64,000 nucleotides of DNA from Chloroflexota bacterium (GCA_013152435.1 JAADGJ010000010.1:13911-77910); one strand, 5' to 3'. Counted from the first letter of the stretch, positions 9,943-34,990 are shown. The notes: generated by a model from the letters alone, not told the origin. Translations and numbers: made by a program.

Positions 9943-10089
9943 AAGAAATCTATTTTCAGCCCCTCACCTGCTCCGTGGGGCCGGAGGCCACCGGCCAAAG
10001 CCCCAACCAGGCAGGGAAAAGGCGAGAACAAGAGTTTTCCTGCGGAGGGGAAGCCCCTCCGCACCTCCTCTTATCCTGAGAGAGCCCCG

Positions 10090-10818
10090 TTATTGCGCCT
10101 CCTCCATCCACGCGTCCTCCGGGAGGTTGTGCCCCGCGATCAGGAGAATGGTCAGCGCCAGTAACCAGGTCGACTCCTCCTCTGAGAGCGATCCGGCCGG
10201 GAACACGGCCGGGCTATGCCCCCATTTCCGCCGCTCCTGAAAGCTGGCCAGGCGGCCGATCTCCCGGCCGTGTAGGGTCACCGTGTGAGGCCGCCCCAGC
10301 TTCTCCCTAAGGGCTGCCTGGGCTCCCGCGACGAACAGGATGGGCGGCCCTCCCACCCGGGGGGCGCTTCCCACGGCCTCGCCCGTCGAGTCAAGCAGCG
10401 TCCCATCCGGCAGGATCGTCCCCCACAACTCCCCATCGATGTGGATCGTCGTGCGCTCCGGCGTGATATCGAAGGAGAAGGTATGCTCCGTCGTGCGAGC
10501 CTCCAGGGTCCCGCGCGTCGTCTCACGCCCCCCACGTATGTTGAACGTAAAGGCGATCCATGCGGGCCCTTTGGGATCATGCACGCTATGGATCATGCCC
10601 TGGCCGCGCACCCGTCGAGGGAGCTTCACCCAACGGGCTTCCCACTTGGCGGACAGATCCTCCAGGCTCTCCGGCGGCCAGGGGCGAAGGTGCGTCACGG
10701 CCCGGCGCCACCGGCGAATCAGCCATAGGACCAAGGCGACAAGTCCTGCCATTCCCAGGCCAACCAGGCAGATGGAGGCCAGGCAGATGATCGCCCAGTT
10801 TGGAGACGTGGAATCCAT
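10090..10818 (-). CDS. Uncharacterised membrane protein (N-terminal TM anchor, ~200-aa domain, C-terminal amphipathic/TM segment); paralog of 32213..33028.
   Basis: 242 aa. Clear paralogy to the 271-aa product of 32213..33028 (LRPWPPESLEDL / LRPWSSEGLTDL; GSAPR; LARTTE; WLLALTILLIAGHNL / WLLSLAILQIAGYNL). Start 10818 has an AAGGGGGG RBS and lies 10 nt after the stop of the metzincin gene. Confidence 0.7.
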   Translation of the reverse strand: MDSTSPNWAIICLASICLVGLGMAGLVALVLWLIRRWRRAVTHLRPWPPESLEDLSAKWEARWVKLPRRVRGQGMIHSVHDPKGPAWIAFTFNIRGGRETTRGTLEARTTEHTFSFDITPERTTIHIDGELWGTILPDGTLLDSTGEAVGSAPRVGGPPILFVAGAQAALREKLGRPHTVTLHGREIGRLASFQERRKWGHSPAVFPAGSLSEEESTWLLALTILLIAGHNLPEDAWMEEAQ

Positions 10819-10828
10819 CGTTCCCCCC

Positions 10829-13800
10829 TTATTCCTGGCTTATGGCGGGCATGAAGATCTGCACAGGAGGCCACTCGCCGACGGTGATGGTCACAGAGGC
10901 GCTGCCGGTCAAGCCATCGCTATCGATGGCGGTCAGGGTGATCGTGTGATAGCCTGGAGGCAGATCGGAGACCTCCAGGCTCGAACCGGAGCCCAGGTCG
11001 CCGCTGATGTCGGAGTGCCAGCGCAGCTGTGCATCCGCCTCGATCGGTCCATCCTCAATGTCCGTCCCATAACCCTTCAGATAGATCGGCGAACCCACGG
11101 GGAAGAAGGTCCCGGCCGTGGGGACGAGGATGCCCGCCAGGGGCGGCTTCCTCGGCACGGAGAAAACCCCATCGCTCTCATCGGCGGCGGTGTTCACCCC
11201 GTCGCTCGCCAGCACGCGCACCTTGGCCTGGTCGGAGCCGCCGATCTCTGATGTATCGACCGTATAGCTCGTCTCGGTCAGGTTCACGGCCATGGTGTGC
11301 CACGTCCCTCCGCCGTCGATGCTATATTGCAAAGTGTAGACGAGCGGGTCGCCGTCGGGATCGTTGCCATGCCAGCGTATTGTTATCGATCCGTCGAGCG
11401 CCTCGCCGCCGTTGGGATAGTCCATCGTGACCGTGGGCGGATTGGGGCTGACCTGGCGGGTGTCCAGGACCTTCTCACCGTGCAGAAGGACGATCGATCG
11501 CGTGCCGATTGGGAATGGCAGCACCTCTATCCAATAGCGCCGGGGCTCTGAGGTGTCGGAGTCGGCGATGTACTGCTGTGGCTCAAAGTAGCGCGTGAAC
11601 AGGACGTTGCCCGTCGCATCCCGCAGCTCCAGGCGGTAGGCACCCTCCCCCGGGGCATCGGCCGTGCCTACCGGGCGTCCTTCCACATAGGCGAATCCTA
11701 ACTCTCCTGTATCGGCCTCCACATCTACGAAGCCATTGATGAGCAGATAAGGTTGCTCCTGGTTGGTCCCCCGCGCAGCGCTGGACCCTGGGCGGATTAC
11801 CAGCTTTTTGAAGATCGCCTGATACGTGTATGGGCTGACCCAACCTGGCCAACAGTATGACATAAGATCATAGGTGGACGCCGGGTCATACACGCGCGGG
11901 GTAAAGCTGAAGACGTCGAATCCGAATTCGCCAATGGAAGAGAGCGGATAGGGGACACCTTGCGGATTCTTGTAGTTCGGATAGTTGGTGTCCTCACCGC
12001 TTGGATCCTTGCAATGTGGGTCAATGACTTTTCCTTTCTTGTCTCGCGCGCTGGGGGCATGTGCTCGCCCAAAGTTGTGGCCCAGCTCGTGTGCCATGGC
12101 GCGGCCGTTAAACGCTACCCCGGCTGCCACCGGCACCCTGGTTGAGCCTATTCCCGCGACGGCCAGTTTAGGGATGTTCTTGTCCACCAGCCCGTACCAG
12201 TTACGACGCGTATTGACAGAGCGGATCCGCAGCCAGTTCAGCTTGTCCAGTAGCGCCTCCCATCCCGCCCGCCTCGTCAGGTCATGCTTGAAGGGGAGGA
12301 CAGCGTAGCCCACCGGCCACCAGAGGCGAATCTGGGAAAGGGGGAAGGTCTTCTCCGTGTAGCGGGGCGTCTCGAACGCCGCCTGAAGGGGAGGTAGGTA
12401 GACGGTCGGTTTTTTCTGCCCCGCCGCCTGCGACTCATACCGTACGCGAACCATCACGATATCCAGTGGTCGCGTCTCCTGAAAGGTGACCGTCGCTTCA
12501 CGCCGATTATTGGTCAGGTCGCGTTCCGGGACCAGCTCTCCCGGGTTCAGATCGAAGACGAAGTGCATCCGTCCCCTGCTCCACCTGGAAGGTAGCTCAA
12601 AGTAGAAGCTGTGGTCAAGCCTCCCTCGCTGAGGATTGGTCCGGACGGTGATCAGCCTGTGAGGATGCCTTGGCTCCAGCCGGGCGATGAGAACCTTCGT
12701 CCCATTGCTGGCCACGGCATACACTTTCAGAACCGCAAATACCCCGCTTACAGACCCGCCCAAGGGCGAATTCGCCCTGACGTGCGCGCGCACGTAAGTC
12801 GGTCTGTTCTGCACCAAGGGGACGCTGTTGTTCAGATCCTGGATAGCCTGTGTGACTTCCAACGCCTGTATCTCCAGGTCCGGCAAGAGGTCTCGGCTGA
12901 ACTCGGAGGTGTTGCCCATGCCGTCCGTCGTCGTGAGCGTGAAGTATCTCCGTCTCCGTGCCACGGAGACGCTGTACTTGCCGGACGCGTCGGCCTGAAC
13001 GCTCGTCAGGAACTCCTCGCCCTCATCGGCATCATCAACGAAGACCTCCACGGTGCATTTGCCACAGGTGCTGCCCTCTAAGGTATACTGGCCGCCGGCG
13101 GACGTCACCCGGGTGACGGAGGGAGGGCTTAAGCCTTGATTTCCGCCTGACAGGAGGCGAATACCCCGACCCTCGTTTTTGAAGATGCTGTTGTGGGAGA
13201 TGGTATTGCGTATCGTATTGTGTCCTTCAATCCGGATGCCATCCCCCTTGTTGCCGGTGATCGTGTTCGCCATGCCCGACGAGGCCCCTCCGATCTGATT
13301 CATCTGGGCGCCGCCGGCGATGTATATACCGTGTGACCCGTTGGGAAGGGGGGCGGAGAAAGCTCCGATGCCTATGCGATTCCCCCACACCTTATTCCGA
13401 TCCGTGCCGACGTCGGTAATGGCCACGCCAAGTCGATTGTTCCCCGCGATCACATTCCCCGCGTCGGTATCTCTTCCCCCGATCTCATTCTCCTGAGCGC
13501 CGCCGGCAATGATCACGCCGTTGAGGTGATTGGGTATGGCAACTCGTCCCGTGAAATCGGTACCGATGTAATTGCCCAGCACCCGATTGCGCACCGTCCC
13601 CGTTCCGTAAATGTGTACCCCGTTGTCCTGGTTGCCGCTGATGATATTGTTCTCGAACAGATCAGTGCTGCCGATGATATTATCATGGGCGCCCGTGGCG
13701 ATGATCACGCCGGAGCCATCATTGGGGATGGCCATCTTCCCGGTGGCGTCGGTGCCGATGTAATTGCCAGTGACGGTGATGGCCGTGGAGGACTCCCAGA

Positions 13801-15961
13801 TGAGGATCCCATGGCGACCGTTTCCGCTGATGACGTTGCCCTCCGTATGGAACCCGCCGATGCGATGTTCTCTGCCGCGGGATATCTCGATCCCATCGCC
13901 GCCGTTACCCAAGTCCACATTGCCGCGCGGGTTCACGCCGATGCGGTTGCCGCGCACGACGTTGTCTCGTCCCGATTCGATGCGTATCCCATCCCCCATG
14001 TTGCCGCTGATGACGTTGGCAGAGAGCGCGCCAGGGGAGCCGACGGTGGTGCGACGGACGTTATCGAGATACACGCCGTCTCCGTGGTTGGGCAACGCGG
14101 TGGTGCCGAGGCGGTTCAGGCCAATGATGTTCCCCAGGATATAGGTCCTCTCAACGCCCGGTCCTCTGAGCTCGACGCCATGACTCAGGTTGCCGCTGAT
14201 CACGTTGCCCTCGCCATCGTTGGGGCCGCCGATGAAGTTGCTCCGAGCCTTCTGAGAGACGAGCACACCGATGCCGCCGTTGCCCAACGCCAGGTTGCCC
14301 TCTTTGTCGGTACCGATGACGTTCCCCCGCACGGAATTCTGGTCCGTGCCGGCGCCGGTGATCCATATGCCGCCGCTATCGTTGCCGCTGACTACGTTGC
14401 CGGGACCGATTTGATTCGCGTTGGCGCCGTCCTGGATGACGATCCCCCAACCGTGATTGGAGCGCCGCACCTCTCTGCCGGTGGGGTCCAGGCCGATGAT
14501 GTTCCGCTCTATCCGGTTCACCATGCTACCCGACCCGGCGATGAGCAGGCCGTGCTGCCCGTTCCCGCCGATCACGTTCCCCCGGATCAGGTTGTGGCTG
14601 GCGTTCTCGCTCAGGACCACGCCGATGCCGTTACCGGCCGGATTGCCGAGGGGGTCCAACCCCACGGTATTGGTGAGCACCTGATTGCTGGCCCCCTGGA
14701 TCCAGATGCCGTAATGCTCAAAGCCGGTGATGCTCAACCCCTGGATCACGACTTTGGTCCCCTCGACGATCAGGCCATCGCCGCCCGCGCCCAGGCGGGA
14801 TCCGTCGATCTGGATCTCGGGGCCGGCCGGGTTGGGGTCGCTGCCGATGAATCCCGCCTGACTGAAGCCATCTATGAGGAGGCCGGGCGCGGTCAGAGCG
14901 GGCAGGGTCGAGGTGACCTGGATGGTCCAGTAGCCGCCGGCCGGGTAGTAGCCCGGGTCCGAAGTGGGAATTCGGAACGTGATGTGCTTGACGAAATAGC
15001 GATTGGCCGCCTGAATGGCTTCGCGTAGGGAACAGTGCTGAAGCGTGCAGGCGCCATCGTCGCGATCGTCCGTAGTGTTCACCTCCCAGCGCAGTACGAA
15101 GGTCCAGCGAAGGCGGTAGGAGGCCGGCAGGACGGCCGTCCCGGGGTTCGCCCGAACGCCCACTCGGTAGGTCCCCCCGACCTCGGCCGGGTAGATGATG
15201 GCCTCCGCGCGGGTCCCGGGCGCGTCGGAGAACGCCACCTCCTCGCCGTTGGGGTCGAAGAGGACGAGAACGAGATCGATCGGCAGATCCGAGGGGGATG
15301 ATGCCGCCATCTCCGACACGCCGTCCACCTCGATCTGGAGGATCTGCCCGGGCGACACGTCGGGTAGCGCATAGTAATCCACGTCCTCCTCATGGCAGAT
15401 GTAGCTATCGACGGGCGCGTCAGGCTCGATGGACCATGCCTCCTCCGGGACATCGTTCGGCTCGTAGGGATCAGGGCAGGGAGCCGGGGTAGCGACCGAG
15501 TCCACGCGTAGGGTGTATGGGTTGGGTTGCTCGTCCTCCGTTCCCCAGACCACCGCGTAATACGTGCCCGCCTGATCCGCCGTGTGGACGATCTGTTCCG
15601 TTGTGGTCCCCGGGTTGGTCGAGGTGATGAGCACGGTCTGATCGGGCCCGTAGAGATCAAGGTTGCTATCCCATTCCATGCCGTAAAGGCTGATCGTGAT
15701 CTGCTGGCCCGTGGTCAGGGGAAAACGGAAGAAGTCGTTATCATCGGAATTGCATACGACGGCGTTGTATTCCACACCGAACTCCACCGGTGTGGCCTGG
15801 TCAAACCAGTTGTTGGGCTCGTAAGGATCGGTGCAGTCGGCGGGCAGGTGGGCCGTTGCCTCCCCATCTGGTGAGTCGCTTAGAACAACCGTACCGCCAA
15901 GGGCGAAGAGGACGAGGGGGAGGAGGAAGGCAACCAGCCATTGTGCGCGATGGAAGGACAT
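10829..15961 (-). CDS. Giant secreted multidomain metzincin-type zinc metalloprotease (1710 aa).
   Basis: Domain order read from the translation: signal peptide; two N-terminal PPC (pre-peptidase) domains (DPYEPNN...DDNDFFRF); CSLREA motif (TLQHCSLREAIQAAN); about 20 parallel beta-helix repeats (NVISGN.., GNRIG..); metzincin motif HELGHNFGRAH (12061..12093) plus Met-turn DLMSY; C-terminal Ig/PKD-like domains. The last residues are ...VQIFMPAISQE. RBS AAAGGAG. Confidence 0.85.
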   Translation of the reverse strand: MSFHRAQWLVAFLLPLVLFALGGTVVLSDSPDGEATAHLPADCTDPYEPNNWFDQATPVEFGVEYNAVVCNSDDNDFFRFPLTTGQQITISLYGMEWDSNLDLYGPDQTVLITSTNPGTTTEQIVHTADQAGTYYAVVWGTEDEQPNPYTLRVDSVATPAPCPDPYEPNDVPEEAWSIEPDAPVDSYICHEEDVDYYALPDVSPGQILQIEVDGVSEMAASSPSDLPIDLVLVLFDPNGEEVAFSDAPGTRAEAIIYPAEVGGTYRVGVRANPGTAVLPASYRLRWTFVLRWEVNTTDDRDDGACTLQHCSLREAIQAANRYFVKHITFRIPTSDPGYYPAGGYWTIQVTSTLPALTAPGLLIDGFSQAGFIGSDPNPAGPEIQIDGSRLGAGGDGLIVEGTKVVIQGLSITGFEHYGIWIQGASNQVLTNTVGLDPLGNPAGNGIGVVLSENASHNLIRGNVIGGNGQHGLLIAGSGSMVNRIERNIIGLDPTGREVRRSNHGWGIVIQDGANANQIGPGNVVSGNDSGGIWITGAGTDQNSVRGNVIGTDKEGNLALGNGGIGVLVSQKARSNFIGGPNDGEGNVISGNLSHGVELRGPGVERTYILGNIIGLNRLGTTALPNHGDGVYLDNVRRTTVGSPGALSANVISGNMGDGIRIESGRDNVVRGNRIGVNPRGNVDLGNGGDGIEISRGREHRIGGFHTEGNVISGNGRHGILIWESSTAITVTGNYIGTDATGKMAIPNDGSGVIIATGAHDNIIGSTDLFENNIISGNQDNGVHIYGTGTVRNRVLGNYIGTDFTGRVAIPNHLNGVIIAGGAQENEIGGRDTDAGNVIAGNNRLGVAITDVGTDRNKVWGNRIGIGAFSAPLPNGSHGIYIAGGAQMNQIGGASSGMANTITGNKGDGIRIEGHNTIRNTISHNSIFKNEGRGIRLLSGGNQGLSPPSVTRVTSAGGQYTLEGSTCGKCTVEVFVDDADEGEEFLTSVQADASGKYSVSVARRRRYFTLTTTDGMGNTSEFSRDLLPDLEIQALEVTQAIQDLNNSVPLVQNRPTYVRAHVRANSPLGGSVSGVFAVLKVYAVASNGTKVLIARLEPRHPHRLITVRTNPQRGRLDHSFYFELPSRWSRGRMHFVFDLNPGELVPERDLTNNRREATVTFQETRPLDIVMVRVRYESQAAGQKKPTVYLPPLQAAFETPRYTEKTFPLSQIRLWWPVGYAVLPFKHDLTRRAGWEALLDKLNWLRIRSVNTRRNWYGLVDKNIPKLAVAGIGSTRVPVAAGVAFNGRAMAHELGHNFGRAHAPSARDKKGKVIDPHCKDPSGEDTNYPNYKNPQGVPYPLSSIGEFGFDVFSFTPRVYDPASTYDLMSYCWPGWVSPYTYQAIFKKLVIRPGSSAARGTNQEQPYLLINGFVDVEADTGELGFAYVEGRPVGTADAPGEGAYRLELRDATGNVLFTRYFEPQQYIADSDTSEPRRYWIEVLPFPIGTRSIVLLHGEKVLDTRQVSPNPPTVTMDYPNGGEALDGSITIRWHGNDPDGDPLVYTLQYSIDGGGTWHTMAVNLTETSYTVDTSEIGGSDQAKVRVLASDGVNTAADESDGVFSVPRKPPLAGILVPTAGTFFPVGSPIYLKGYGTDIEDGPIEADAQLRWHSDISGDLGSGSSLEVSDLPPGYHTITLTAIDSDGLTGSASVTITVGEWPPVQIFMPAISQE

Positions 15962-16048: not shown

Positions 16049-18937
16049 TCACCCGCAAAGCGAGAACACGAGATAGCCCGCCGGACACACGATGGCCTGA
16101 TTCTCCTGCGTCGTGACGGCGATCCACTGGTCATCCGGGCTGAAGACGAGTCCCTGGAATGGGCCGCCCACGGGGAGAAGCTCAAGCCCTTGCTCCCCGC
16201 TGATGACCACATATGCCTCCGAGGAGCCAAGGGCGACCACGAGCTGCCCACCAGAAGAAAGCGCCAGCGTATGGATACTTTCCGGAGCGGGGATGCTGGC
16301 CGCGAGGGTTCCATCCACACGCCAGATGTGCAGCGCATAGCCCTCGTCGGTCGAGCCGTTGGTCAGGAACCCCCCGGGGTCGAGGAAGAGGAGCGTGTTC
16401 GGGTCGCCGGAGATCCCGGTTTTCACCGTGGCGACCGGTTCCCAGTCCTCTGTGCGCCAGATCTGTACCGTGCCCCCATAGGCGATAGCGACCAGATACG
16501 CGCCATCCGGCCCGAAGGCGACACCCTCGACGATGGGCGCGTGGACGCCTTCATACGGGAATCGGAGCTTCTGCACCACCGATCCGGTCTTCGCCTCGAT
16601 CACCGGCACCAGGCTCCCCTGGGCCGCCGAGACGGCCAGCGCGATCAGCCGGCCATCGGGGCTGAAGGCCAGGCCCATGATGCCGCCGAAGCTATCGCGA
16701 AAGGTCGCCGTGGGGGCGGCGTCCCCCTTCAGCAGCGCCGCCGTCTCCCACACGGTTAGATGATCCTGGAGATCGGCGGTGTAAGCTGTGGCCAGCAACG
16801 TCCCATCGGGGCTAAAGGCGATCTTACTGGCCTGGATAGGTTGAACGGCGAGCTGCTCAAAGGTTCGCCCATCGTAGAGGGCCAGGCGTGACGTGCCGGA
16901 CGAGCTATCCCAGAGGACCATCGCCACCCAGCGCCCCGCCGGGTCCCATGCCAGATCAAGGGGGCGCGTGCCTTCCGGGAGCGTAAGCGATGTGATCTCC
17001 TGCTCCACGGTCGATTCCGGCTGCGAGGTTGAGGAGAGATAGCGCCGGTCGTAGTACTCGCGGATCCTCTCCGGTGACCACCGGAGGCTTCGGAGCACTC
17101 GTAACACGGTCCCCTCGTGATAGCCCTCATTCCACAGGTCGGCTGGAGCCATCCAGAGGAAGTAGGCACGGATCCCTTGCTGCGGCTCCCAGAGTACCTC
17201 CAGGCCCTTACGTGTGCCGTCTTCGGAGGTAAACTCGGTGATGGTGACGGGGAGTCCCTGGGCATCCTCGCTCGTGTCCGTCTCGGCGGCCGGGCTCTCG
17301 CCGAAGGCTCGCTTTCGCAGCTCCTGAACGAACTGCTGGAAGATCTCCGCCAGGTCGGCGTCGGTGACGTCGGAATAGACGAACAGGAGCCCCTCGCCGG
17401 TCTGGTCGCTCTTAAACGCGTATCCGGTTGGCGGGTCGGTTAGCTCCTCCTCCTGGTCCAGCTGGGGGGGACGAGAGAAGGAGAAGAAACCCAAGGGCTC
17501 TTCATAAGGGGTCCACATGTTGAACTTTTTATGCACTCTGGGCGGGAACCAGGTGATTTCCAGTTCCTGCCACTGCTGCAGGCGTTGCTCCCAACGGTCC
17601 TTGGGCACGAGCCAGAAGCGGAGCAGGATGATGCCCCGATCTTCCTGGAGGCTGATCATCCCGCCGCGCTGCTCGGCCTCGGAGATCGCGTATGCGACGG
17701 CCACGCGCCCGCCCTCCGGGGCAGCTTGGGAGATGATCTCAGCATCGTCGCCGATCGTTGCGACGACCTCGGGGATGATCGCGTCCACCATCTCGCTCCA
17801 GGTGGCGTCATCCAGCGGCTGGCTGTCTACGGGGATGAACGAGATAGCCAGGGCCTCCGTATCCTCCGGGTTGCTGAAGATGTAGCCGTACTGGTTCTCG
17901 TCCGCGTTCTCCTCGACGACGCTGAGGTGCGCCGGATAGCGTATCGTGAACAGGCTGTTGGGGTCATAAGGATCGCCGAACTCGCTCCACCCCGAGGCTC
18001 CTTCGGGGGCAGGCGTGGGCGTGGGGGGCTCCACCTCCGCGCGCACGGTGAAGGTATAGGTCGCCACCTCCCGATCGTCGATGAGGAGCACCACCTTGTG
18101 TTCCCCTTCGGGCCATCCCTGCTCGGGCAGGTAGGAGAAGTAGAAGCCCGTGTCCTCGACGTTCTCCTGAGCTGTGATGGTGCGAGTGCCTGCCTCATCC
18201 AGTTGGCCGGACACATACCAGTGGGCTTCCAGCGTCGAGTGGAGTCCCAGGTCCACCCGGCCGACCACGAACACTTCCTCTGTAGGTGTGAAAGTGTCCG
18301 TGGGCTCGATCGGCTGGAAGTCCTCCGTCGCCCCCCGGGCCAGGACAGCCTGGCGCACCTGGGAGGGGATGGCCTCAGGCGGCGGGATGATGATGAACTC
18401 GTAGGATCCGGCCGGAGATCCGTTCAGGAGAATCTCCGCTCGGTAAAGATCGCTGATGGGGAATGGCTTCTCATGGGTGAGGGTGAAGCCCACGTTGGTG
18501 TTGCCCCCGATCACGAAGACCAGGCCCTGCTTCTTGCGCTCCTCGGCCAGATCCACGGTAGCCGATGCGATCTCCTGATCCTGATAGAGGAAACGGGCGG
18601 TCACCTGCCCTCCTTTGGGAGTGCCCTTCAGCTTGATGGAGAGGTAGATCGTCTCTTCCGGTGTAAACGTGTTGCCGGGATTGACGGGGGCGAATTCCTC
18701 CGTCAGGCCGTGGGCGAAGGTAGCCTCCAGGATCTTCAGAGCAGTCTGTTCCTCTGCGACGGGGGTGGGAGTGGGGACGATCTCCTCTTCCTCAGGCGCG
18801 GGCGTCTGCACGGCCGCCTCCCCGGCCGGAGCAGGCGTCGGCGTGGCCGGCTCCTCCTCACCGCCGCAGGCTGCCAACCCGAATGCAAGCGACAAGGCCA
18901 GGAACACGGTCAGAAGGTACATACGCATCTCTCGCAT
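16049..18937 (-). CDS. Lipoprotein with duplicated N-terminal domains and a C-terminal WD40/TolB-like beta-propeller (962 aa).
   Basis: Signal peptide with lipobox LAACGG and a TP/E-rich linker. Repeats FSPDGTLLATA, FSPDGRLIALA, FGPDGAYLVAIA and FSPDDQWIAVT are typical of beta-propeller blades. RBS GGAGGA. Confidence 0.75.
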   Translation of the reverse strand: MREMRMYLLTVFLALSLAFGLAACGGEEEPATPTPAPAGEAAVQTPAPEEEEIVPTPTPVAEEQTALKILEATFAHGLTEEFAPVNPGNTFTPEETIYLSIKLKGTPKGGQVTARFLYQDQEIASATVDLAEERKKQGLVFVIGGNTNVGFTLTHEKPFPISDLYRAEILLNGSPAGSYEFIIIPPPEAIPSQVRQAVLARGATEDFQPIEPTDTFTPTEEVFVVGRVDLGLHSTLEAHWYVSGQLDEAGTRTITAQENVEDTGFYFSYLPEQGWPEGEHKVVLLIDDREVATYTFTVRAEVEPPTPTPAPEGASGWSEFGDPYDPNSLFTIRYPAHLSVVEENADENQYGYIFSNPEDTEALAISFIPVDSQPLDDATWSEMVDAIIPEVVATIGDDAEIISQAAPEGGRVAVAYAISEAEQRGGMISLQEDRGIILLRFWLVPKDRWEQRLQQWQELEITWFPPRVHKKFNMWTPYEEPLGFFSFSRPPQLDQEEELTDPPTGYAFKSDQTGEGLLFVYSDVTDADLAEIFQQFVQELRKRAFGESPAAETDTSEDAQGLPVTITEFTSEDGTRKGLEVLWEPQQGIRAYFLWMAPADLWNEGYHEGTVLRVLRSLRWSPERIREYYDRRYLSSTSQPESTVEQEITSLTLPEGTRPLDLAWDPAGRWVAMVLWDSSSGTSRLALYDGRTFEQLAVQPIQASKIAFSPDGTLLATAYTADLQDHLTVWETAALLKGDAAPTATFRDSFGGIMGLAFSPDGRLIALAVSAAQGSLVPVIEAKTGSVVQKLRFPYEGVHAPIVEGVAFGPDGAYLVAIAYGGTVQIWRTEDWEPVATVKTGISGDPNTLLFLDPGGFLTNGSTDEGYALHIWRVDGTLAASIPAPESIHTLALSSGGQLVVALGSSEAYVVISGEQGLELLPVGGPFQGLVFSPDDQWIAVTTQENQAIVCPAGYLVFSLCG

Positions 18938-22955: not shown

Positions 22956-24017
22956 CTACATGTGCAGGAGCACCGGCAGGTAGATCTTGATGTGGCCTGG
23001 CATCCCCGTTGGTGTGGGCGTCGGCGTCACGATGGCCAGGCGGAGGGCGTAGGGAGTGGCGCTCCACGCGTTTTGAGGGGCGAAAACGCCAGCGATGTAG
23101 TTGTTCCAGCTGGGAACATAGTGCTCCACATGCTCGGGTGTGGTGGCAGGCTGCCTCGATGCGGCTACCGGGGTGGCCTTCCCAGGCTCCCAGAGGAGGA
23201 GATCATAATTCTCAGGCAGGTTGGTTAGATCCAGGATCACGACGTTCCCGCCGGTCACATAGAAGCTGTAGTAATCCTCGTCTCCCTGAGGACAGATGTA
23301 TGCCTGAATCTGCCCCGGCGAGATGGGCGCCGCGTTAAACCCATCGTCATTGGGTTCATAGGCGTCGGGCGGACATATCGACGTAGGCGTGAGCGTGGGA
23401 GTTGGTGTGGGCGTGGGCGTGCTCGTCGGCGTGGGAGTTGGCGTTGATGTGGGCGTGTTCGTCGCTGTCGGGGTCGGCGTCGGCGTCGGTGTGAGCACCG
23501 CCACCTGTAGCGTATAGGGATTCACGCTCCACACACCACCATAACCGAAGACGTTCGCCCGGTATCCCCCGGTTTGGGAGGCTACATGCTCGATGTGCTC
23601 GGAGGTGGTGCCGGTGTTCTGGGAACGGGCGGTCAGATATCCTGAGGGGTCCCAGAGAAAGAGATCGAAGTCATCCGGCAAATTGGTTAGATCCAGTCGA
23701 ATCGTATCCCCGGCGGTAACGGAGAACTGAAAATAATCCTCGTCTCCCTGAGGGCAGATGACCGCCTCCCATAATCCTGGGGAGATCGAGTAAGCCGTGC
23801 TGAAGGTGTCGTTGGGCTCAAAGGGATCGTAGGGGCAGTCCTGAGTCTGGAACGCCGGGGCCGGGGCGGGCGCTCGCAGGGGATCCGAAAGGGTCGATCC
23901 TGCCGAGCGTCCGGAGAGCATGATCCAGAGCGGGAAGAGGAGAAGCAAAGGGATCAGCGAGTGCCCGGATTTCAAAATCGGATTCCGTGATATGGGGTGC
24001 TGACGTGGAGGTGCCAT
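22956..24017 (-). CDS. Small secreted protein with two PPC (pre-peptidase C-terminal-type) domains joined by a long TP linker.
   Basis: Signal peptide from Met at 24017 (MAPPRQHPISRNPILKSGHSLIPLLLLFPLWIMLSG). Two copies of the YEPND...ICPQGDEDYY.F module. C-terminus ...GHIKIYLPVLLHM. RBS AAGGAGAGGG. Confidence 0.75.
   Translation of the reverse strand: MAPPRQHPISRNPILKSGHSLIPLLLLFPLWIMLSGRSAGSTLSDPLRAPAPAPAFQTQDCPYDPFEPNDTFSTAYSISPGLWEAVICPQGDEDYFQFSVTAGDTIRLDLTNLPDDFDLFLWDPSGYLTARSQNTGTTSEHIEHVASQTGGYRANVFGYGGVWSVNPYTLQVAVLTPTPTPTPTATNTPTSTPTPTPTSTPTPTPTPTLTPTSICPPDAYEPNDDGFNAAPISPGQIQAYICPQGDEDYYSFYVTGGNVVILDLTNLPENYDLLLWEPGKATPVAASRQPATTPEHVEHYVPSWNNYIAGVFAPQNAWSATPYALRLAIVTPTPTPTGMPGHIKIYLPVLLHM
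23385..23500 (-). repeat. Hexanucleotide coding repeat for a 40-residue Thr-Pro linker.
   Basis: (GGCGTN/GGTGTG)n on the plus strand, giving TPTPTPTATNTPTSTPTPTPTSTPTPTPTPTLTPT. Confidence 0.8.
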
Positions 24018-24046
24018 GATCCCTCTCCTTATCTTCAGAGGTGGAG

Positions 24047-25876
24047 CTATCTCATGACATGCGGGATATAGATCTTCCGAGCTCCATTGGATCCAGATGC
24101 GTCCGTTCCCCAATCCGGGTATGCCGCGCGGCCGTCGGTGGTGACGGGCCACAGCTCCACCGGGTTCTCCAGGTTGAGAATCCACAGATCGCGCCCGTTG
24201 ACCGTGCGGCGATCGAACATGAGATACTTCCCATCGGGAGAGACCGTGGGTGAATGCACGGGATCGGCGAGGAGCTGTTCCGTGTATCGATATAGGTTCA
24301 GCTGGGTCAGCGGCTGTACCTGCCCGGTGGAGAATCGATACAGGTAGAAGTTAAGCCCGTCCGTGTAAACGAAGCCGGAGCCATCCGGCAGCCAGGCCAG
24401 TTCCTGGGTGGAGATCCCGGTGCTCACCGCGTTCACCAGCAGGGTGCCCTGGCCGCCGCCCTCCGTGGTTTGGTAGATCCCCGCGTATGAGGCGTAGAGC
24501 AGGGTGCCGTCCCCCTGGGGAGACCAGGAGAAATCGCTCACCCCTCGGGCGTTGGTGGTGAAGGGATCCCCCAGCAGCCCGCCCAGGGTCACCGTCTGGG
24601 CCACGCCGTTGACCGAGAAGCCGATGAGCGCTCCATCCGGCCTCCAGGAGGGATTGCTGGGCTCGATGGCCTGGCAATCATCGGGGACGAAGTTCAGCGT
24701 GCCCACGCTCGTCGTCTTGCCTGCGCGCACGTCCACCATCCCCCCGGCGAAGGTATACAGCCCCTGGCTGCATTTGCTGTCCATCCAGATGAGGACGATG
24801 TACTGCAACGTGCCCGACCCCAGGTCTGCCACATTGGGGACGACGAAGGAGGCCGTGCTGTTGGGGCCGAGGGGGCCGAGCGCGATGGGTGTAGCCGCTC
24901 CCTGCACGTAGATTGAGGCGGCGGTGATCTGCCGGTTGCTGTTGTTGTGGACGACGCCGCTCACCGTGCCTCGGCCATAGCCGCCGCTTTGCATGTCCGC
25001 GTGGGAGGGTGGGTTGGTCACACGGCGCACACGTCCATCGCTCACACGAACGCGATATACATCCACGTGGAAGCGGGAGTAACCCGCCTCGTGATCGCTG
25101 GTGAACGCGATCTCCGAGCCGCCTGGTCTCCAGGCCAGGCCGAAGATCTTTCCCTTGCCGGCGACGGGATATGTCCAGAGGACGTGGCGGTTGCTGCCGT
25201 CGGGGTTCATCCAGCCGATGGTGTAGCGCCCGCTGTGATCCACCCCCCGGTAGGCGACGCGCCCGCTCAGCTGTGGATACACCATCTCACCGCTGAGTTT
25301 GAGGGATACATTGTCCACATAGGCCTGGAACGCGTCGTGTTGGTTGAGGACCAGTTGGATGAGGAGATAGACGCGCTGTTTGGCCTGGTGCGCGGCCTGA
25401 ATCGCGGCCACCTCGCCGTCGCTCAGAGTGTGTTGGAAACGCTGCCAGCCTGTGTCGCCGGTCACTACGGGGGTCACCTGCCAGGAGGTGATCTCGGTGG
25501 CCTGGGTGCCGTCGTGCTTGATGAAGCCGGCGACGAGCCGGCCGCCATAGGCGCCATAAGTGCCGGGCACCATACGATAGTCGAAGGAGACGGTAGCCGC
25601 GGTGGTGCGGGTGGGCAGGTAGATCTCCTGCCAAGCGCTCGCCGGCCCTCGGCTCAAAAAGGTCTTGAGGACGAGGACCGGGTCGGTGCCCACCCCTACG
25701 CTCTCCGTGGTGGTCACCTCGTTCCATCCCCAATCGTCCAGCCGGGCGTCAAAGGTGCCGTTGCGGATGAACTCGCGGTTGGTGAACGTCTCCCCGCCCG
25801 CGGCGAACGCTTGCATCGGCGTGACAATCGTGCTCATGATCAGGCACAAAAGCGCCCACGGGATGTATCTTTGCAT
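24047..25876 (-). CDS. Secreted protein with an N-terminal CBM-like jelly-roll domain and a TolB/WD40-like beta-propeller (609 aa).
   Basis: Signal peptide MQRYIPWALLCLIMSTIVTPMQAFA. The N-terminal segment matches the CBM4/9-like pattern (NGTFD...WGW). Propeller blades WRPGG, WSPQGDG, VSPDGKY. It ends ...GARKIYIPHVMR. Confidence 0.7.
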   Translation of the reverse strand: MQRYIPWALLCLIMSTIVTPMQAFAAGGETFTNREFIRNGTFDARLDDWGWNEVTTTESVGVGTDPVLVLKTFLSRGPASAWQEIYLPTRTTAATVSFDYRMVPGTYGAYGGRLVAGFIKHDGTQATEITSWQVTPVVTGDTGWQRFQHTLSDGEVAAIQAAHQAKQRVYLLIQLVLNQHDAFQAYVDNVSLKLSGEMVYPQLSGRVAYRGVDHSGRYTIGWMNPDGSNRHVLWTYPVAGKGKIFGLAWRPGGSEIAFTSDHEAGYSRFHVDVYRVRVSDGRVRRVTNPPSHADMQSGGYGRGTVSGVVHNNSNRQITAASIYVQGAATPIALGPLGPNSTASFVVPNVADLGSGTLQYIVLIWMDSKCSQGLYTFAGGMVDVRAGKTTSVGTLNFVPDDCQAIEPSNPSWRPDGALIGFSVNGVAQTVTLGGLLGDPFTTNARGVSDFSWSPQGDGTLLYASYAGIYQTTEGGGQGTLLVNAVSTGISTQELAWLPDGSGFVYTDGLNFYLYRFSTGQVQPLTQLNLYRYTEQLLADPVHSPTVSPDGKYLMFDRRTVNGRDLWILNLENPVELWPVTTDGRAAYPDWGTDASGSNGARKIYIPHVMR

Positions 25877-25919
25877 AGACGGATTCTCCTAGGGTCGCTG
25901 CAAGAAAGCGACAGAACCG

Positions 25920-27950
25920 TTATTGCCGCCGTATGATGGGCAGATAGATGTGCCGCGAAGGCGTCGGGGGGGCGGCTCCGCCGCTCAGCGCGATCGTAAG
26001 GGAGTAGGTCTGGTTGGCGCTGAAACCTGCGTAGGAAGTGACCGTGACGTAATAGAAGCCGCTCCCGGTCGCCACGTGTTCAATACGCTCGTCAGCATTG
26101 CCCGAGTTGGTAGAGGTGGCCACCTGGTTCTGACCAGGATCGCTCAGCCACAGATCGTAATCCGTGTTGGCGGGGATGTTCGTCAGGTCGATGATGATGC
26201 GCTGGCCCGCACTCGCGTTGAATTTGAAGTAATCGATGTCCTGATCGGAGCAAATGGCTGCTCGCAGGGTGGTTCCGGGCGTGATGCTGCGGGCCTGGCT
26301 GAAGTTGTCGTTGGGCTCGTAGGCGTCCGCACAGGCGAGCCTGGGCAAGACCGCCAGAACGGAGCCAAAGCTATCCCATTCTTCGGCTTGGTCTTCGATG
26401 CCATGGCTGTCTTGCGTCCACCACTGATTGTTTTGTGCGGTCAGGCCCTGAGTTGAGCCGTAGATGACCTGCACGGCTCCCGCGTTCTGGGTGTTGCCCA
26501 GATCTTCATAAGGGACGCCAACTGCGAGATCATCGTAGCCATCCCAATTGAAATCGCCCGCGGCCAGGGATTGCCCGAAGCTGTCGTTCGCCTTGGCCCC
26601 GTCGTTGTTCAGGCCGGGGGAGCCCTGATACCATAGCTGGGAACCGGAATCTGTCAGCCCTTGGTCGGTGCCGTAGATGATGATCACAGCTCCCGTATCG
26701 TTCACACTATTCATTTCTTCGTCGCGGACGCCTACGGCCAGGTCGTCGTATCCATCGCCGTCGAAATCGCCCGCGGCCAGGGCATAGCCGAATTCTTCAT
26801 CCTCTTCCGCGCGGTCCGGCAAATTGCCCGTGTCCTGCGTCCACCGCTGGTCGGGTGTGGCGAGGCCCTTGCTTGAGCCGTAGAGGACGTGCACAACGCC
26901 GGCTTCGCTCACCTTCCCGGCATCTTCGTTATGCGCTCCGATGGCCAGGTCGTCGTATCCATCGCCATCGAAATCACCCACGGCCAACGCCTCGCCGAAA
27001 TCGACATCCTCCTTCGGCTGGCCTGAGATGCCGTTATCGCTTTGATTGAACAGTTGATTACCTGTGGCCGTAAGCCCCTGTGCAGAGCCATATATCACCT
27101 GCACTGCGCCGGCGTTGGGCTCGCCCGTCACTTCCTCACCACGAATACCGATCGCCAGGTCGGCATACCCATCACCATTGAAGTCGCCAGAGGCCAGAGC
27201 GTCGCCGAAGAAGTCCCCATCACTGGCCTCCCCCAACATGCCGGGACTATCCTGATGCCACATCTGGTTGCCTGTGGCGGTCAGACCCTGGGCCGACCCG
27301 TAGAGGATGTGCACCACCCCCAGTGCGTCGGCGTTGTCGGCCTGGAAGCCCTCCGATGGATTGCTGATGGCCAGGTCCGTGTAGCCATCGCCATTGAAAT
27401 CGCCCGCGGCCAGGGCTTCACCGAAACTGTCGTAGTCTTCGACGCTATCGAGCACGCCCGGCGAGTTCTGGTCCCAAAGCTCACTGCGTTGCCCCACGCC
27501 GGTGGCTGATCCGTACAGGACGATGACCGCGCCGCCCTTCTTGCCCCCGGCTGGGGTCTCTCCATAGGCGCCGATGGCCAAATCAGGATAGCCATCGCCA
27601 TTGAAATCGCCCGCGGCCAGGGCGTTGCCGAAGAAGTCCCCTTTTTCCGCGTTCTCGGGGATGCCGGGGCTATCCTGGGTCCAGAATTGGCTGCCGGTGG
27701 CCGTGAGACCGGCGTTGGATCCGGGAATGGCATGAACGGCCCCGGCCATACTGACGTTGCCGACGGCCTCAGAGTCCACACCCACCACCAGGCCGTCCTG
27801 GAAGGTAAATCGGGGTGCGTTCGTTGCAACAGGCTGAGTCGGAGAGAGGAGAGTGCTACCGACCGCCACGCGCGCACCGAAGATCAGGATCACCATGCAG
27901 AGGGTGACCGAGACAGCGCCGATAAAGTGAATCCGTCCTTTTCGTGTCAT
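25920..27950 (-). CDS. Secreted FG-GAP (integrin-alpha-like) repeat protein with a C-terminal PPC domain.
   Basis: About 8 repeats of GDFNGDGY(A/D)DLAIG. Then the PPC module CADAYEPNDNF...ICSDQDIDYFKF. It ends ...RHIYLPIIRRQ. Start ATG 27950 has a GGGAGG RBS; the track's upstream start at 28001 is rejected. Confidence 0.8.
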   Translation of the reverse strand: MTRKGRIHFIGAVSVTLCMVILIFGARVAVGSTLLSPTQPVATNAPRFTFQDGLVVGVDSEAVGNVSMAGAVHAIPGSNAGLTATGSQFWTQDSPGIPENAEKGDFFGNALAAGDFNGDGYPDLAIGAYGETPAGGKKGGAVIVLYGSATGVGQRSELWDQNSPGVLDSVEDYDSFGEALAAGDFNGDGYTDLAISNPSEGFQADNADALGVVHILYGSAQGLTATGNQMWHQDSPGMLGEASDGDFFGDALASGDFNGDGYADLAIGIRGEEVTGEPNAGAVQVIYGSAQGLTATGNQLFNQSDNGISGQPKEDVDFGEALAVGDFDGDGYDDLAIGAHNEDAGKVSEAGVVHVLYGSSKGLATPDQRWTQDTGNLPDRAEEDEEFGYALAAGDFDGDGYDDLAVGVRDEEMNSVNDTGAVIIIYGTDQGLTDSGSQLWYQGSPGLNNDGAKANDSFGQSLAAGDFNWDGYDDLAVGVPYEDLGNTQNAGAVQVIYGSTQGLTAQNNQWWTQDSHGIEDQAEEWDSFGSVLAVLPRLACADAYEPNDNFSQARSITPGTTLRAAICSDQDIDYFKFNASAGQRIIIDLTNIPANTDYDLWLSDPGQNQVATSTNSGNADERIEHVATGSGFYYVTVTSYAGFSANQTYSLTIALSGGAAPPTPSRHIYLPIIRRQ

Positions 27951-28080
27951 CTTGCCTCCCTGCCTTGAAAACAGGTTCTCCGACCGATTCTCGTGGTTCA
28001 CGGCGTCCCGTTAGGGGCACGGTGACTGTCATCAAAAGAGATGCCTTTCCCTTGCTCTTGCCGTCTACCGTCTGCCGGAT

Positions 28081-31000
28081 CTAGTTAGGGGATGCGTCAG
28101 ACTGCGGCCCCCGGACGCCGGCGGGCGTGGGCCATGCGTGCGGGACGGGCTTGGGCGAGGTCCCCTCGTGTCGCTCCAGGGGAGCGATCGAGTCCTCGGC
28201 CGGAAGGCCATATTCCCGGCTGGCGTGGCTCTGCGCGGCCGTGATGGGCTCGTCCCAGGCGATGGCCCGGAAATCGTCGAAGTGGACGATGCCCGGCGCG
28301 TAGCTGGAGGGCCAGTTGATCAGCCCAAAGTATCCTTGGCCGAGCAGGGAGACGTCGCTCAGGGTCTGCAGGTATTCATCGTTCACGAAGAGGTGAATCT
28401 TCGTCCCATCACGCACGGCCTTGAGCGTGTTGGGCGAACTGCCCGGCCGGATGGCTGAGGAGGGAAGCCACGCATCCCCCTCCGCGTCATCCCATGTGAG
28501 CGCCTGCCAGTTGCCCTGGTAGATCGCCAGGGCATACTCCATCGTATCGGGGATGATCAGGAACGCGTACAGGGAGTTGAACGATCCATCCTCGCCGAAG
28601 ATCAACCCGTACGCGATGGGGTAGTTGCTCGGCCGATGTCGGGCGGTCACCTGGAAGCTCCCGTTGGGATACGGGCCGATAGGAGCCCGGAAGACGCATG
28701 CCCAGTCGGGCTGGGTAGCGGTCACGTACTCCCCACCCTCATACGTCGCCTGGCAGACCTCTGTGCCGCTGGTGGGCCATCCGCTGCCGGAACTGCTGAA
28801 GTCGTCCTCCATGATCACCGTGGGGATGGTGATCTTGAAGTCGTCGAAGTAGGAGGTGGCCGATCCGGTGTTGTAGTACGCCCAGGTGGCCACGCCTACG
28901 TACCCGTTGCTGGGGAAGGCATTGTCCTTCACGGTGACCAAATCCACATCGTTGACATAAAGTGTGATCTGGTCTCCCTGGCGACGTACCTTGAGGACAT
29001 TGACCTGGTCGCCCGTTTGGATGGCGGGTGAGGCTCCCGCGTCGGTGACGTTGGTCCACGTGCCGTTATCGTATCGTTGCAGCAGGTAGGTCTGGTATGC
29101 AGCATCCACCCAGAAGACGTAGAACTGCTGGATGCTGTTGGGGGAGTCCAGGCCAAAGACCAGGCCGTAGACGCTGCCATCACCGGCGGAGGACTTGGCG
29201 GCTTTCACCTGGAAGACGCCATCCACCCGGGGTTGCGCCGGAGCTGCGGAGAGGCATACCTGTCCTAGCTGCAGGACGGCTACGCCATACATGCCGCTCA
29301 CGTAGGCATACTGGCACACCCCTGCCGCCCCGGAGGCCCAGCCGCTGGCCGGATTGGCGAAGTTGTCGTAGTAGACGCGCGGTGAAGGGGGCTGCGTCGG
29401 TGTAGGTGTGGGGCCGACGGGCGTCGGGGTCGGCGTCGGCGTGGCTGTGGCCGTGGGGGTCGGTGTACTGGTGGGCAGGAGCACAGCTGTGGCCGTGGGA
29501 GTGGGTGTGGGATAGCCGGTGGGGGTTGGTGTGGCCGTGGGAGCAGATGTAGGTGTAAATGTAGGCGTGCTGGTTGGGGTGGGGGTGAACTGCCCCATGT
29601 TCTTCCCCACCAGCGGGAGATGGAGGAGGGTGGACGGCGTTGTGCCGGGCCGGGTCGGCGTGGGGGTGGGGGCAGAGGTGCCCCCGGAAAGCTGCACGCG
29701 ATATACGCTGCGCCCGTGGGTTGCGGCCACGAGCACGTTCGCCTTCGCGTTCAGGACCAGATCCACGACTGCCACGGCGGGCAGGCCGTTATTGAAGGGC
29801 TCCCAGGTGCGCCCGTCATCACGGGTGCGGAAGACGCCGGTATCCGTGCCGATGTAGATCGTGCCGGGTGCGTCCGGATCCAGGGCGATGGAGAGGGCGG
29901 GCACGTCCGGCAGATTGCCGCTGATGTCCCGCCAGGTGGCGCCTCCGTCCGTGGTCTTGAACACGTGCCCGGGCTGCCCGGGAGTGTGGACGTTGAAGCC
30001 GTTATACACCACGTACGCCACGCGGGGATTTCGGGAGTCTACGGCGATGGCGGAGACCCAACGATTGGGTAGGGGAGGCTTGGTCACGTTCGTCCAGCTC
30101 CCTCCCGTGTTAGTGGTCACCTGCACGTTGCCGTCCGATGTGCCCACGTAGATGGTGCGGGGATCTGAGGGGGCCACGGCGATGGCGGAGATGCTGCCGG
30201 GCCGAGTTCCTCCTTTGGAGAGATCCCCGCTAATGGGCGTCCACGTATCGCCGCGATCGGTGGTCCGGTAGAGGCGATGCGTTCCGAAGTAGATTACGCC
30301 GGGCGTGGACGGATCCAGAGCGAACGGCGCGTAGAAGAGCGCCCGGTCCTGCTGGCCGATGCCCTCCGTCTTAATGGGCCAGTCATCCACGGGGGCGCTC
30401 CCGTTCTTCTCGTTGCGCTGGAAGGAGATGCCGAACCGGGTGCCGTAGTAGATGTTGGGATTGAAGGGATCGATGGCCACCCGGCCTCCGTCGCCCACGT
30501 CCAGCGCATCCCATACCAGCGCCCCTGTGGTCCTCGCCTTGTTGTTATCCTGCATGCCGCCGAAGATGATGTTGGGATTCGTGGGGTGGACGCCGATGCC
30601 CGTGAACTGGAGGGTGGCCAGGCCGTTGTTTCGATTCACCCATGTGCGCCCGCCGTCGGCGGATCTCCACACGCCGCCGTCGGTGCCCACCCATACCACG
30701 TTCGGATTTTTGGGATCGAACACGATGGCGTGGACGTCGGGATGGAGGGTGTGCTCGGGCGCGTCGTTAGGGCTCAGGTCCTGCCAGGTGGCCCCGCCGT
30801 CCGTGGACCGAACGACGACCTCCTTGATGCGCGTGACCGGCTGCCAGATGTAGTTGGCGGCCCCGCCCAGGTACACGATGTTAGGGTTTGTGGGGTGGAT
30901 GGATACCACGTTGTCGTACCAGCACTGGCCCATGCAGTAGTTGGGCGCGTTGCGCAGCCAGGTCCACGAATCGCCGCCGTCCGTGGTCTTGAAGACGATG

Positions 31001-34551: not shown

Positions 34552-34764
34552 TTAGGGTCCTTCAGCGTTCCTGGTGGGGGGATCGAGAGGCGAGGAGGTC
34601 TGCTCTCGTAGATAGGCGATCAGTGCCTCCACGGAAGGGAACCCCTGGCGTTTTCCAGTTCGGGTATCTTCCAGGGAGGCTCGCCAGATGGGGGAGTCGT
34701 CACCTGACTCGGCCCACAGGCGTAGAAGGAAGGAATAGTATGGATATCGATCCAACGGGCTCAT
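34552..34764 (-). CDS. Small hypothetical protein (70 aa) between the regulator and the secreted-protein cluster.
   Basis: ATG at 34764 with a GGGAGG RBS (rc of 34771..34776). No recognisable domain, and codon bias is gene-like. Whether it is co-transcribed with the cluster is unknown. Confidence 0.4.
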   Translation of the reverse strand: MSPLDRYPYYSFLLRLWAESGDDSPIWRASLEDTRTGKRQGFPSVEALIAYLREQTSSPLDPPTRNAEGP

Positions 34765-34990
34765 GAGGAACCTCCCAACGCATGGGCGGTGCACTGGATC
34801 CTCGCATGGACGCGGCGGCATTATATGCCCCAGGATACAGTGTCCGGGCAATGGCACAGTGACTTCAATAGCACAATGGTGTCAGGAAAGTGTCAGGAGG
34901 GAGCCCTAGATCCGGTTCAGGGGTGGGTTTTCGATGAATGGAATATGGTAAAATAGGCCTAAGTAAGGGAGGGGCTCTGGGGGAAGGGAA

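Follow-up and report, generated by a model that had tools for sequence, protein, structure and literature searches.

A stretch of 64,000 nucleotides from a Chloroflexota bacterium (GCA_013152435.1, JAADGJ010000010.1:13911-77910; hereafter the window, meaning the whole stretch analysed) contains two genes for small membrane proteins that are paralogous, belong to the same protein family and occupy operon-like positions next to genes for large exported proteins. Judging from their sequences, the two are true paralogs within an unnamed Chloroflexota family, and structural models predict, with good support, that this family sits in the tubby/beta-flower superfamily, outside any of its named families; we thus regard it as a membrane-anchored, unnamed variant of that superfamily. 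We infer that the two proteins act as non-enzymatic adaptors of exoprotein cassettes, tethered at the cytoplasmic face of the membrane, where they would bind a partner; the chances of the adaptor role appear to be about even. As far as sequence libraries and the literature show, neither the family nor its pairing of an N-terminal transmembrane (TM) anchor with a barrel that faces the cytoplasm has been described, and the same holds for its gene neighbourhood; the fold superfamily is already known and would be extended to a bacterial form tethered at the cytoplasmic membrane face by a genuine TM helix.

The two paralogs and their family

The two genes are:

10090..10818, minus strand: paralog 1, 242 amino acids (aa), ATG start, predicted bitopic membrane protein with a cytoplasmic tubby-like barrel
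32213..33028, minus strand: paralog 2, 271 aa, GTG start, likewise predicted to be a bitopic membrane protein with a cytoplasmic tubby-like barrel

A preliminary description of the window had presented the two products as paralogs, and BLASTP bears this out: residues 12-239 of the 242-aa protein align with residues 18-271 of the 271-aa protein, that is, nearly end to end, with 40% identity and 53% positives (E 6e-57), and the single large gap, of 19 residues, corresponds to an extra helical linker in the 271-aa protein, which paralog 1 lacks. The shared motifs that had been quoted are present as well, namely the LRPW-type segment (LRPWPPESLEDL and LRPWSSEGLTDL, respectively), GSAPR and the C-terminal WLL-type segment (WLLALTILLIAGHNL and WLLSLAILQIAGYNL, respectively); a supposedly common LARTTE motif held in part, in that ARTTE is found in both proteins and LARTTE in the 271-aa protein, but the 242-aa protein reads EARTTE. 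The short intergenic distances reported were also exact, with 10 nucleotides (nt) between the gene for a 1710-aa protein and paralog 1, 9 nt between a 489-aa CSLREA gene and paralog 2, and 31 nt between paralog 2 and the BNR gene that follows it. Paralog 1 is the final gene of its operon, and purine-rich Shine-Dalgarno-like runs stand just upstream of both starts. A scan of all six frames of the window with the hidden Markov model of the family found only these two copies and no third; promoter and terminator scans around both genes yielded no informative signal, and tRNA and Rfam scans were empty. Two GC-rich perfect hairpins lie on the minus strand 3' of the stop codon of the 242-aa gene, at about 10040-10062 and 9925-9945 (gcggaggggcttcccctccgc and ggaggggctgcagcccctcc); these are likely transcription stops or repeat elements, and the simple terminator scan missed them because no T-run follows them.

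The statement that the proteins lack a family name is correct: Pfam, NCBIfam and PADLOC contain no significant match for either paralog, neither has any Pfam match at E<=10, and scans of both proteins together with 74 family members against these three libraries returned only TM-segment noise and weak Bflower_2/DUF3659 matches. Three word-indexed homolog searches retrieved only 7, 2 and 7 proteins, and every named relative among them belonged to a metagenome-assembled genome (MAG) of Chloroflexota, Anaerolineae or Caldilineae. When 1.84 billion representatives were searched exhaustively with a profile, 229 proteins were recovered at E<=1e-3, 88 of these at E<=1e-10; the 229 cluster representatives are mostly about 230-280 aa long, and for many of them the match spans almost the whole profile. 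A scan for loci with an 8-sequence alignment located nine genome loci, eight in Chloroflexota-lineage MAGs and one in an uncultured bacterium, and five short metagenome loci. Homologs with 39-56% identity to the 271-aa protein are denoted here the close subfamily, whereas all family-wide counts below (topology, conservation, isoelectric point and Pfam scan) derive from a 74-member alignment. The 74 sequences share a plan that opens with a short N-terminus of acidic character and a single helix of strong hydrophobicity, continues through a linker that varies and a conserved L(R)PW....L.DLS helix into a beta-rich region punctuated by Gly, and closes with a C-terminal EE..WLLALA.L(E/Q) helix.

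Predicted fold, membrane topology and the question of enzymatic activity

The structures of both paralogs were predicted with AlphaFold2 (AF2) from the 74-sequence alignment. The two models are confident, one with a predicted local distance difference test (pLDDT) value of 93.3 and a predicted template modelling (pTM) score of 0.86 and the other with 88.3 and 0.82, and each comprises an N-terminal helix, 11-14 beta-strands and a C-terminal helix of 26-29 residues. The segments of the two proteins are:

10720..10791, minus strand: TM helix of paralog 1, about residues 10-33, followed by RRWRR; Kyte-Doolittle hydrophobicity up to 2.65 over 19 residues
10198..10656, minus strand: beta-barrel region of paralog 1, residues 55-207 (DSSP and pLDDT)
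10096..10182, minus strand: C-terminal helix of paralog 1, residues 213-241, predicted to be a barrel-core helix
32915..32986, minus strand: TM helix of paralog 2, about residues 15-38, with a CVLPFCIGGLG motif, followed by HRQWRP
32828..32914, minus strand: variable helical linker of paralog 2, residues 39-67 (helix 49-67 in the model), absent in paralog 1
32312..32773, minus strand: beta-barrel of paralog 2, residues 86-239, 13-14 strands (DSSP)
32219..32296, minus strand: C-terminal helix of paralog 2, residues 245-270, with the invariant Trp250, predicted to be a barrel-core helix

In the predicted models the strands form a closed antiparallel beta-barrel of about 12 strands made of beta-hairpins, a feature of clan CL0395. 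The hairpin region at about residues 150-175 of paralog 1 is of low confidence or helical in the AF2 model, and the linker of paralog 2 is the least conserved of the structured segments (1.24 bits). The barrel hairpins of paralog 2 (VDGEPWGSIRLDGILLDAEEQPIGSA) resemble beta-flower/DUF3659 repeats, and the family profile repeatedly matches the hairpin repeats of giant Bflower_2/DUF3659/RHS-repeat proteins; aligned by hhalign with the Bflower_2/DUF3659 repeat profile, it gives a probability of 91.8% (E 7.5e-7, 76 columns). A hairpin-tip motif of the [DNEQ]xxG type, D168-x-x-G171, is conserved in 66% of the members (n=74), and so are the hairpin glycines G158, G164 and G175. The beta-flower families have been assigned to the Tubby clan CL0395, and a hydrophobic C-terminal helix is enclosed by many of them, six-fold beta-flowers included; the six-fold forms resemble tubby (Durairaj et al., 2023; PMC10584680).

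The best structural match of the models is 2q4m (At5g01750), with 13% identity in the structural alignment and a C-terminal helix buried in its core; the remaining matches are generic 10-14-stranded barrels. At5g01750 has served in the literature as a structural model for the phospholipid scramblases, whose presumed C-terminal TM helix it places inside the core of the barrel. From this match and the published model, the C-terminal segment of the present family is most likely also a helix buried in the barrel core, rather than a membrane segment.

Several results weigh against the placement. A Foldseek search of the PDB gave no significant match (none at E<=0.001), and no member of the family matches the Tub, LOR or Scramblase models of Pfam; for these reasons the family is assigned to the superfamily rather than to one of its named families. 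Likewise, sequence-profile searches of the PDB with the 8- and 74-sequence alignments produced nothing significant, LOR (PF04525) is absent from the 25 most often matched of the 73 families in the Pfam scan, and the beta-flower models of Pfam (PF21784, PF21785 and PF21786) are not matched at gathering score, four of the 74 members giving weak Bflower_2 matches with a best E of 0.022.

Compared with the known branches of the superfamily, the family combines familiar and new features. LURP-one-related (DUF567) proteins (PF04525; At5g01750, PDB 2q4m/1zxu), to which it has no profile match and 13% identity at the structural level, are soluble, whereas the present family has in addition an N-terminal TM anchor and, ahead of the barrel, the conserved L(R)PW...DLS helix. 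Unlike the Tubby C-terminal domain and the phospholipid scramblases (CL0395), its bacterial (Chloroflexota) members are tethered by an N-terminal TM helix and not by phosphoinositide binding or palmitoylation, and they have no recognisable DNA, PIP2 or Ca2+ site. The central hairpins (VDG..G.I..DG.LLD..G..IG) match the beta-flower/DUF3659 repeats (PF21784, PF21785, PF21786 and PF12396) at the profile level, but the strands are longer and the Bflower_2 matches remain few and below threshold; moreover, published beta-flower examples have been noted with lipoprotein signals (PMC10584680), in contrast to the cytoplasm-facing TM anchor of this family. An unnamed family of about 229 cluster representatives, so far known from metagenome assemblies alone and with all named sources in Chloroflexota, thereby gains a structural identity.

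The N-terminal TM anchor claimed in the preliminary description is confirmed, with one TM helix in each paralog according to both Kyte-Doolittle hydrophobicity and AF2. Paralog 1 has no Lys or Arg (K/R) before the TM segment and five after it, and the corresponding AF2 helix spans residues 6-42. In the family, K/R are more numerous after the TM helix than before it in 73 of the 74 members, with means of 3.2 in the 15 residues after the helix and 0.16 before it. Because K/R are concentrated after the helix, the positive-inside rule predicts, with good support, a cytoplasmic barrel in these 73 members. The hydrophobic stretch begins after 9-14 residues in the two window paralogs and after about 0-17 residues (mean 7.5, acidic) in the family, so that very little of the protein should lie outside the membrane. 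The cytoplasmic part is basic, with a median isoelectric point of 9.3 and a net positive charge in 62 of the 74 members. Conservation of the TM helix is unusually high among close-subfamily members (C..PFC.GGLG), a hint of a specific contact within the membrane. A reading of the N-terminus as a lipoprotein signal peptide (e.g., TIAG|C) was rejected, given that no basic residues precede the hydrophobic stretch and that the Cys is followed by a hydrophobic helix of at least 21 residues and then by K/R.

The C-terminal amphipathic segment, also noted earlier, exists in sequence, but it is most likely not a membrane helix and is modelled as a helix after the barrel strands. Its hydrophobicity is too weak for a membrane segment (Kyte-Doolittle about 1.1-1.4 over 19 residues in the two paralogs, mean 1.06 in the family), and a conserved E/Q lies in the middle of the helix.

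An enzymatic activity is unlikely. Glycine, tryptophan and hydrophobic residues dominate the positions conserved in at least 60% of the 74 members, which comprise Gly, Trp, Leu, Ala, Phe, Pro, Ser and Val together with D80, T134, D168, R179, E246/247 and E258. No Cys/His/Ser catalytic set is conserved across the family, and this pattern resembles that of a scaffold; the TM segment contains one or two cysteines in 50 of the 74 members, without a Cys cluster. Phospholipid scramblases are defined by a profile match, a Ca2+-binding loop before the C-terminal helix and a Cys-rich palmitoylation motif. A scramblase (PF03803) was rejected: there is no profile match, an acidic EE pair rather than an EF-hand-like loop precedes the C-terminal helix, and the Cys cluster is missing. 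For sortases, exosortases and rhombosortases there is neither a profile match nor a set of conserved catalytic residues, and the domain is cytoplasmic. An anti-sigma factor was likewise rejected, the topology being the opposite (N-terminus out, domain in) and no anti-sigma model of Pfam or NCBIfam being matched; no sigma-factor domain was detected by Pfam among the eight block neighbours scanned. The preliminary description had made its proposal depend on the lack of homology to an unrelated known family, with anti-sigma factors as the example; kinship to the tubby/LURP-one superfamily at the level of fold was found, and kinship to anti-sigma factors was not.

Possible roles next to exported proteins

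Between 10 and 34.5 kb the minus strand encodes large exported proteins, and the genes relevant to the possible roles of the two paralogs are:

10829..15961, minus strand: upstream partner of paralog 1, a 1710-aa exported PPC/CSLREA/beta-helix/HExxHxxGxxH protein with the YLP-like tail QIFMPAISQE
16049..18937, minus strand: WD40 lipoprotein, 962 aa, lipobox LAAC
22956..28001, minus strand: three exoprotein genes with the YLP-like tails KIYLPVLLHM, KIYIPHVMR and HIYLPIIRRQ
28081..32181, minus strand: BNR/sortilin beta-propeller protein, 1366 aa, 31 nt downstream of paralog 2, without a YLP-like tail
33038..34507, minus strand: upstream partner of paralog 2, a 489-aa exported CSLREA/beta-helix/choice-of-anchor Q protein with the YLP-like tail RYFLPVMVKKG
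34991..38449, plus strand: BTAD/Trans_reg_C/STAND-NTPase/TPR regulator, divergent from the operon of paralog 2

The tight coupling of a duplicated membrane gene to exoprotein genes, on which the earlier proposal was built, is real: the gaps are 9-31 nt and each paralog directly follows a CSLREA gene, TIGR04214 (CSLREA_Nterm) scoring 40.4 bits in both neighbours. The conclusion drawn from it, a dedicated export, anchoring or maturation factor, is not supported, given that the only globular domain is predicted to face the cytoplasm, little protein can lie outside and no polar catalytic set is conserved. Under the adaptor reading, each gene would give rise to a bitopic protein of the cytoplasmic membrane with one TM helix and few residues outside, the cytoplasmic remainder being a closed barrel of about 12 strands of beta-hairpins around its own C-terminal hydrophobic helix. 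This adaptor would be made together with the exported beta-helix and beta-propeller proteins, would bind a partner or anionic lipid at the inner membrane face, and may connect the cassette with its BTAD-STAND regulator or with the step of export. Membership of exoprotein cassettes would have been acquired in one subfamily.

The neighbourhoods of homologs in other genomes (loci designated by L numbers) bear on this reading from both sides. Adjacency to genes that carry the C-terminal motif, which the preliminary description proposed to look for, recurs in the close subfamily, where a YLP-like gene is directly adjacent at 5 of 12 independent loci (L002, with four such genes around the homolog, L007, L012, L015 and both window copies; rough binomial P ~0.01 even with an inflated background of 0.12), but it is not constant. 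At a sixth locus, L001, such a gene is two genes from the homolog. The cut-offs of the NCBIfam YLP models are reached by neighbours in L002 (478 and 506 aa), L007 (480 aa) and L015 (1069 aa), and the cut-off of the ultrashort model only in L001 (621 aa) and L002 (860 aa). No YLP-like gene appears in the available sequence of the close-subfamily loci L006, L009, L011, L013, L014 and L025. Whether homologs occur without secreted-protein neighbours, a point on which the earlier proposal was likewise staked, thus has a divided answer: the close subfamily is often linked to such genes, whereas the more distant homologs of L017, L023, L024 and L030, seen in 10-13 kb of context, have no YLP-like neighbour. 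BTAD-STAND regulators are found within three genes of the homolog in L001, L009, L014 and L015. Relatives of the WD40 lipoprotein adjoin homologs in L001 (6511-8928), L003 (6945-9806) and L006 (920-2089), and in L030 (281-2086) one is two genes from a homolog that is 28-29% identical to the 271-aa protein.

Gene neighbourhoods also weigh against the adaptor role. The contexts of the distant homologs differ, with ABC-F/TPR genes in L017, NUDIX/PAS-GAF-HD genes in L024 and small unknown genes in L023; the family may have a general role at the membrane, independent of exoproteins. If BTAD-STAND regulators and large exoproteins are simply common in these genomes, moreover, some of the adjacency could reflect chance or hitch-hiking on an island.

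The closest descendant of the original proposal is a factor for sorting, anchoring or maturation of the YLP-type tails of neighbouring exoproteins, which perhaps captures the short hydrophobic-basic tail at the membrane through its TM helix and short outer N-terminus; we consider this improbable. It draws on the position of both window copies 9-10 nt after CSLREA proteins with YLP-like tails, on the excess of adjacent YLP-like genes in the close subfamily, on the several neighbours that reach the YLP-box cut-offs, and on the unusually conserved TM helix. The 489-aa neighbour, furthermore, matches choice-of-anchor Q, and choice-of-anchor domains are a class defined by their position before different C-terminal sorting signals. 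In addition, no paper on the YLP-box was found in the full-text literature searched, and in L003, a syntenic contig of a Caldilineae MAG representing a sister genome, the gene decayed together with its partner: the 1710-aa gene was largely lost and the 242-aa homolog was stripped of its 3' half, in two separate deletions, and the WD40 gene and flanking housekeeping genes were retained. Set against these points are the cytoplasmic globular domain with very little protein outside, the absence of a conserved Cys/His/Arg or Ser/His set (the TM cysteines occurring in only 50 of 74 members), the distant homologs without YLP-like neighbours and the six close-subfamily loci mentioned above. The tails themselves also fit imperfectly. 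A [IF][YF][LIM]P tail ends five window exoproteins and a sixth ends in the less clear TFFPTML; NCBIfam has two models for such tails, NF050076 and NF053834, both named "YLP-box putative sorting motif", and the five window tails tested (IYLPVL, IYIPHV, IYLPII, YFLPVM and IFMPAI) look similar but are not reported by these models, although HMMER filters may drop such short matches. Finally, about five or six YLP-like genes in the window face only two copies of the tubby-like protein.

The comparison with dedicated sorting enzymes is instructive in this respect. As with sortases, exosortases/archaeosortases and rhombosortase, the gene adjoins proteins with a short C-terminal motif of the sorting type and a choice-of-anchor domain. 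In those enzymes the catalytic site lies outside the cytoplasm or within the membrane and contains conserved Cys/His/Arg or Ser/His residues, whereas the present family has a cytoplasmic domain, no conserved catalytic residues and no profile match to them. Any recognition of YLP tails would have to go through the membrane helix or precede export. A specific version, in which the tubby-like protein is the cellular partner of the ultrashort YLP-box signal, the TM helix and outer N-terminus capturing the tail and the barrel reporting occupancy to the BTAD-STAND regulator, appears very unlikely. If true, giant beta-helix and beta-propeller proteins would be held non-covalently, by a sorting or anchoring system without a sortase- or exosortase-type enzyme. 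In any case the search for a recogniser of the YLP-box is narrowed, the tubby-like protein being the most consistent small membrane neighbour, yet its topology argues against a sortase-like mechanism.

A second possibility, that the barrel holds the BTAD-STAND-TPR activator at the membrane or modulates it, possibly sensing the exported WD40 lipoprotein through the TM helix, seems quite unlikely. Such regulators lie zero to three genes from the homolog in the window and at the four loci listed above, WD40 lipoproteins recur next to homologs, even the 28-29% identical member, the barrel is cytoplasmic, and a membrane-tethered regulator has already been proposed for tubby and the scramblases. Conversely, no regulator is visible in L002, L013, L017, L023, L024 and L030, and BTAD-STAND regulators are numerous in Chloroflexota and in any case commonly found beside exoprotein clusters.

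The third alternative is a general membrane protein (lipid-binding, scramblase-like or an envelope-stress factor) that hitch-hikes in a variable, integrase-flanked island, which we judge to be unlikely. The breadth of the family, its varied contexts and GC contents of 37-67%, the multiple copies with tandem paralogs in L012 and L025, the basic cytoplasmic barrel, which would suit binding of anionic lipids, and the fold shared with the lipid-binding tubby and the scramblases are all compatible with such a role, as is the variability of the 10-39 kb block, which adjoins a tyrosine integrase. The same-strand exoprotein clusters in several lineages, with short gaps that in L001 give way to a 31-nt overlap, the above-chance adjacency of YLP-like genes and the joint decay of gene and partner in L003 argue the other way. 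We prefer the adaptor reading to all three. The reproducible neighbourhood of CSLREA/YLP-tail exoproteins, WD40 lipoproteins and BTAD-STAND regulators offers a handle on the biochemical role of bacterial members of the superfamily.

The exoprotein block and its relatives

The 1710-aa protein carries the sequence HELGHNFGRAH, which we take to fit the metzincin zinc-site pattern. The three genes with YLP-like tails correspond to open reading frames (ORFs) 22956..24185, 24047..25876 and 25920..28001; the first of them actually starts 3' of 24047. Further members of the block are a PPC protein of 1350 aa, a protein of about 360 aa, a PD40 protein of 609 aa and an FG-GAP/PPC protein of 693 aa. The whole block (window 10000-39150) is a variable region beside a tyrosine recombinase (39136..40260, plus strand; Phage_integrase, E 1.8e-25). 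The syntenic contig L003 keeps both flanks, with an ECF transporter and AIRS on one side and the integrase and GH38 on the other, and lacks window 19015-39147 together with most of the 1710-aa gene.

In another Chloroflexota MAG (L015, 1-1552), an ortholog of the 3' end of the 1710-aa gene and the 242-aa gene (91% identical) occur in the same order, followed by a BTAD-STAND regulator and the 1069-aa DNRLRE/CBM96 protein, which ends in a YLP-box tail. Between close relatives, therefore, the cassette has been reshuffled. The WD40 lipoprotein is the neighbour of the tubby-like gene that is retained across the widest divergence. Its N-terminal domain of about 300 aa, which is absent from the L030 protein, is 48-70% identical between lineages, compared with 32-41% for the WD40 part.

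Tandem pairs of divergent family members are present in L012 (2559-4239) and L025 (114-1711), each composed of a close-subfamily type ending in ...LQVAFxN.LETxW and a distant type ending in ...LE.xY.... This arrangement suggests that paralog pairs may work together, as the two window copies might. Directly 3' of the homolog, L001 (9729-10385) and L007 (2492-3157) encode proteins of 218 and 221 aa with hydrophobic helices at both ends; the two are 50% identical to each other, and they have no counterpart in the window and no NCBIfam match or Pfam record. Lastly, between the BTAD-STAND regulator and the CSLREA gene of the window lies a small ORF (34552..34857, minus strand; about 70 aa from an internal Met, YYSFLLRLW...WRASLED..TG) that weakly matches a 71-aa ORF at the same place in L001 (4318-4533; 25% identity, E 2e-5) and may represent a small, conserved part of the cassette.

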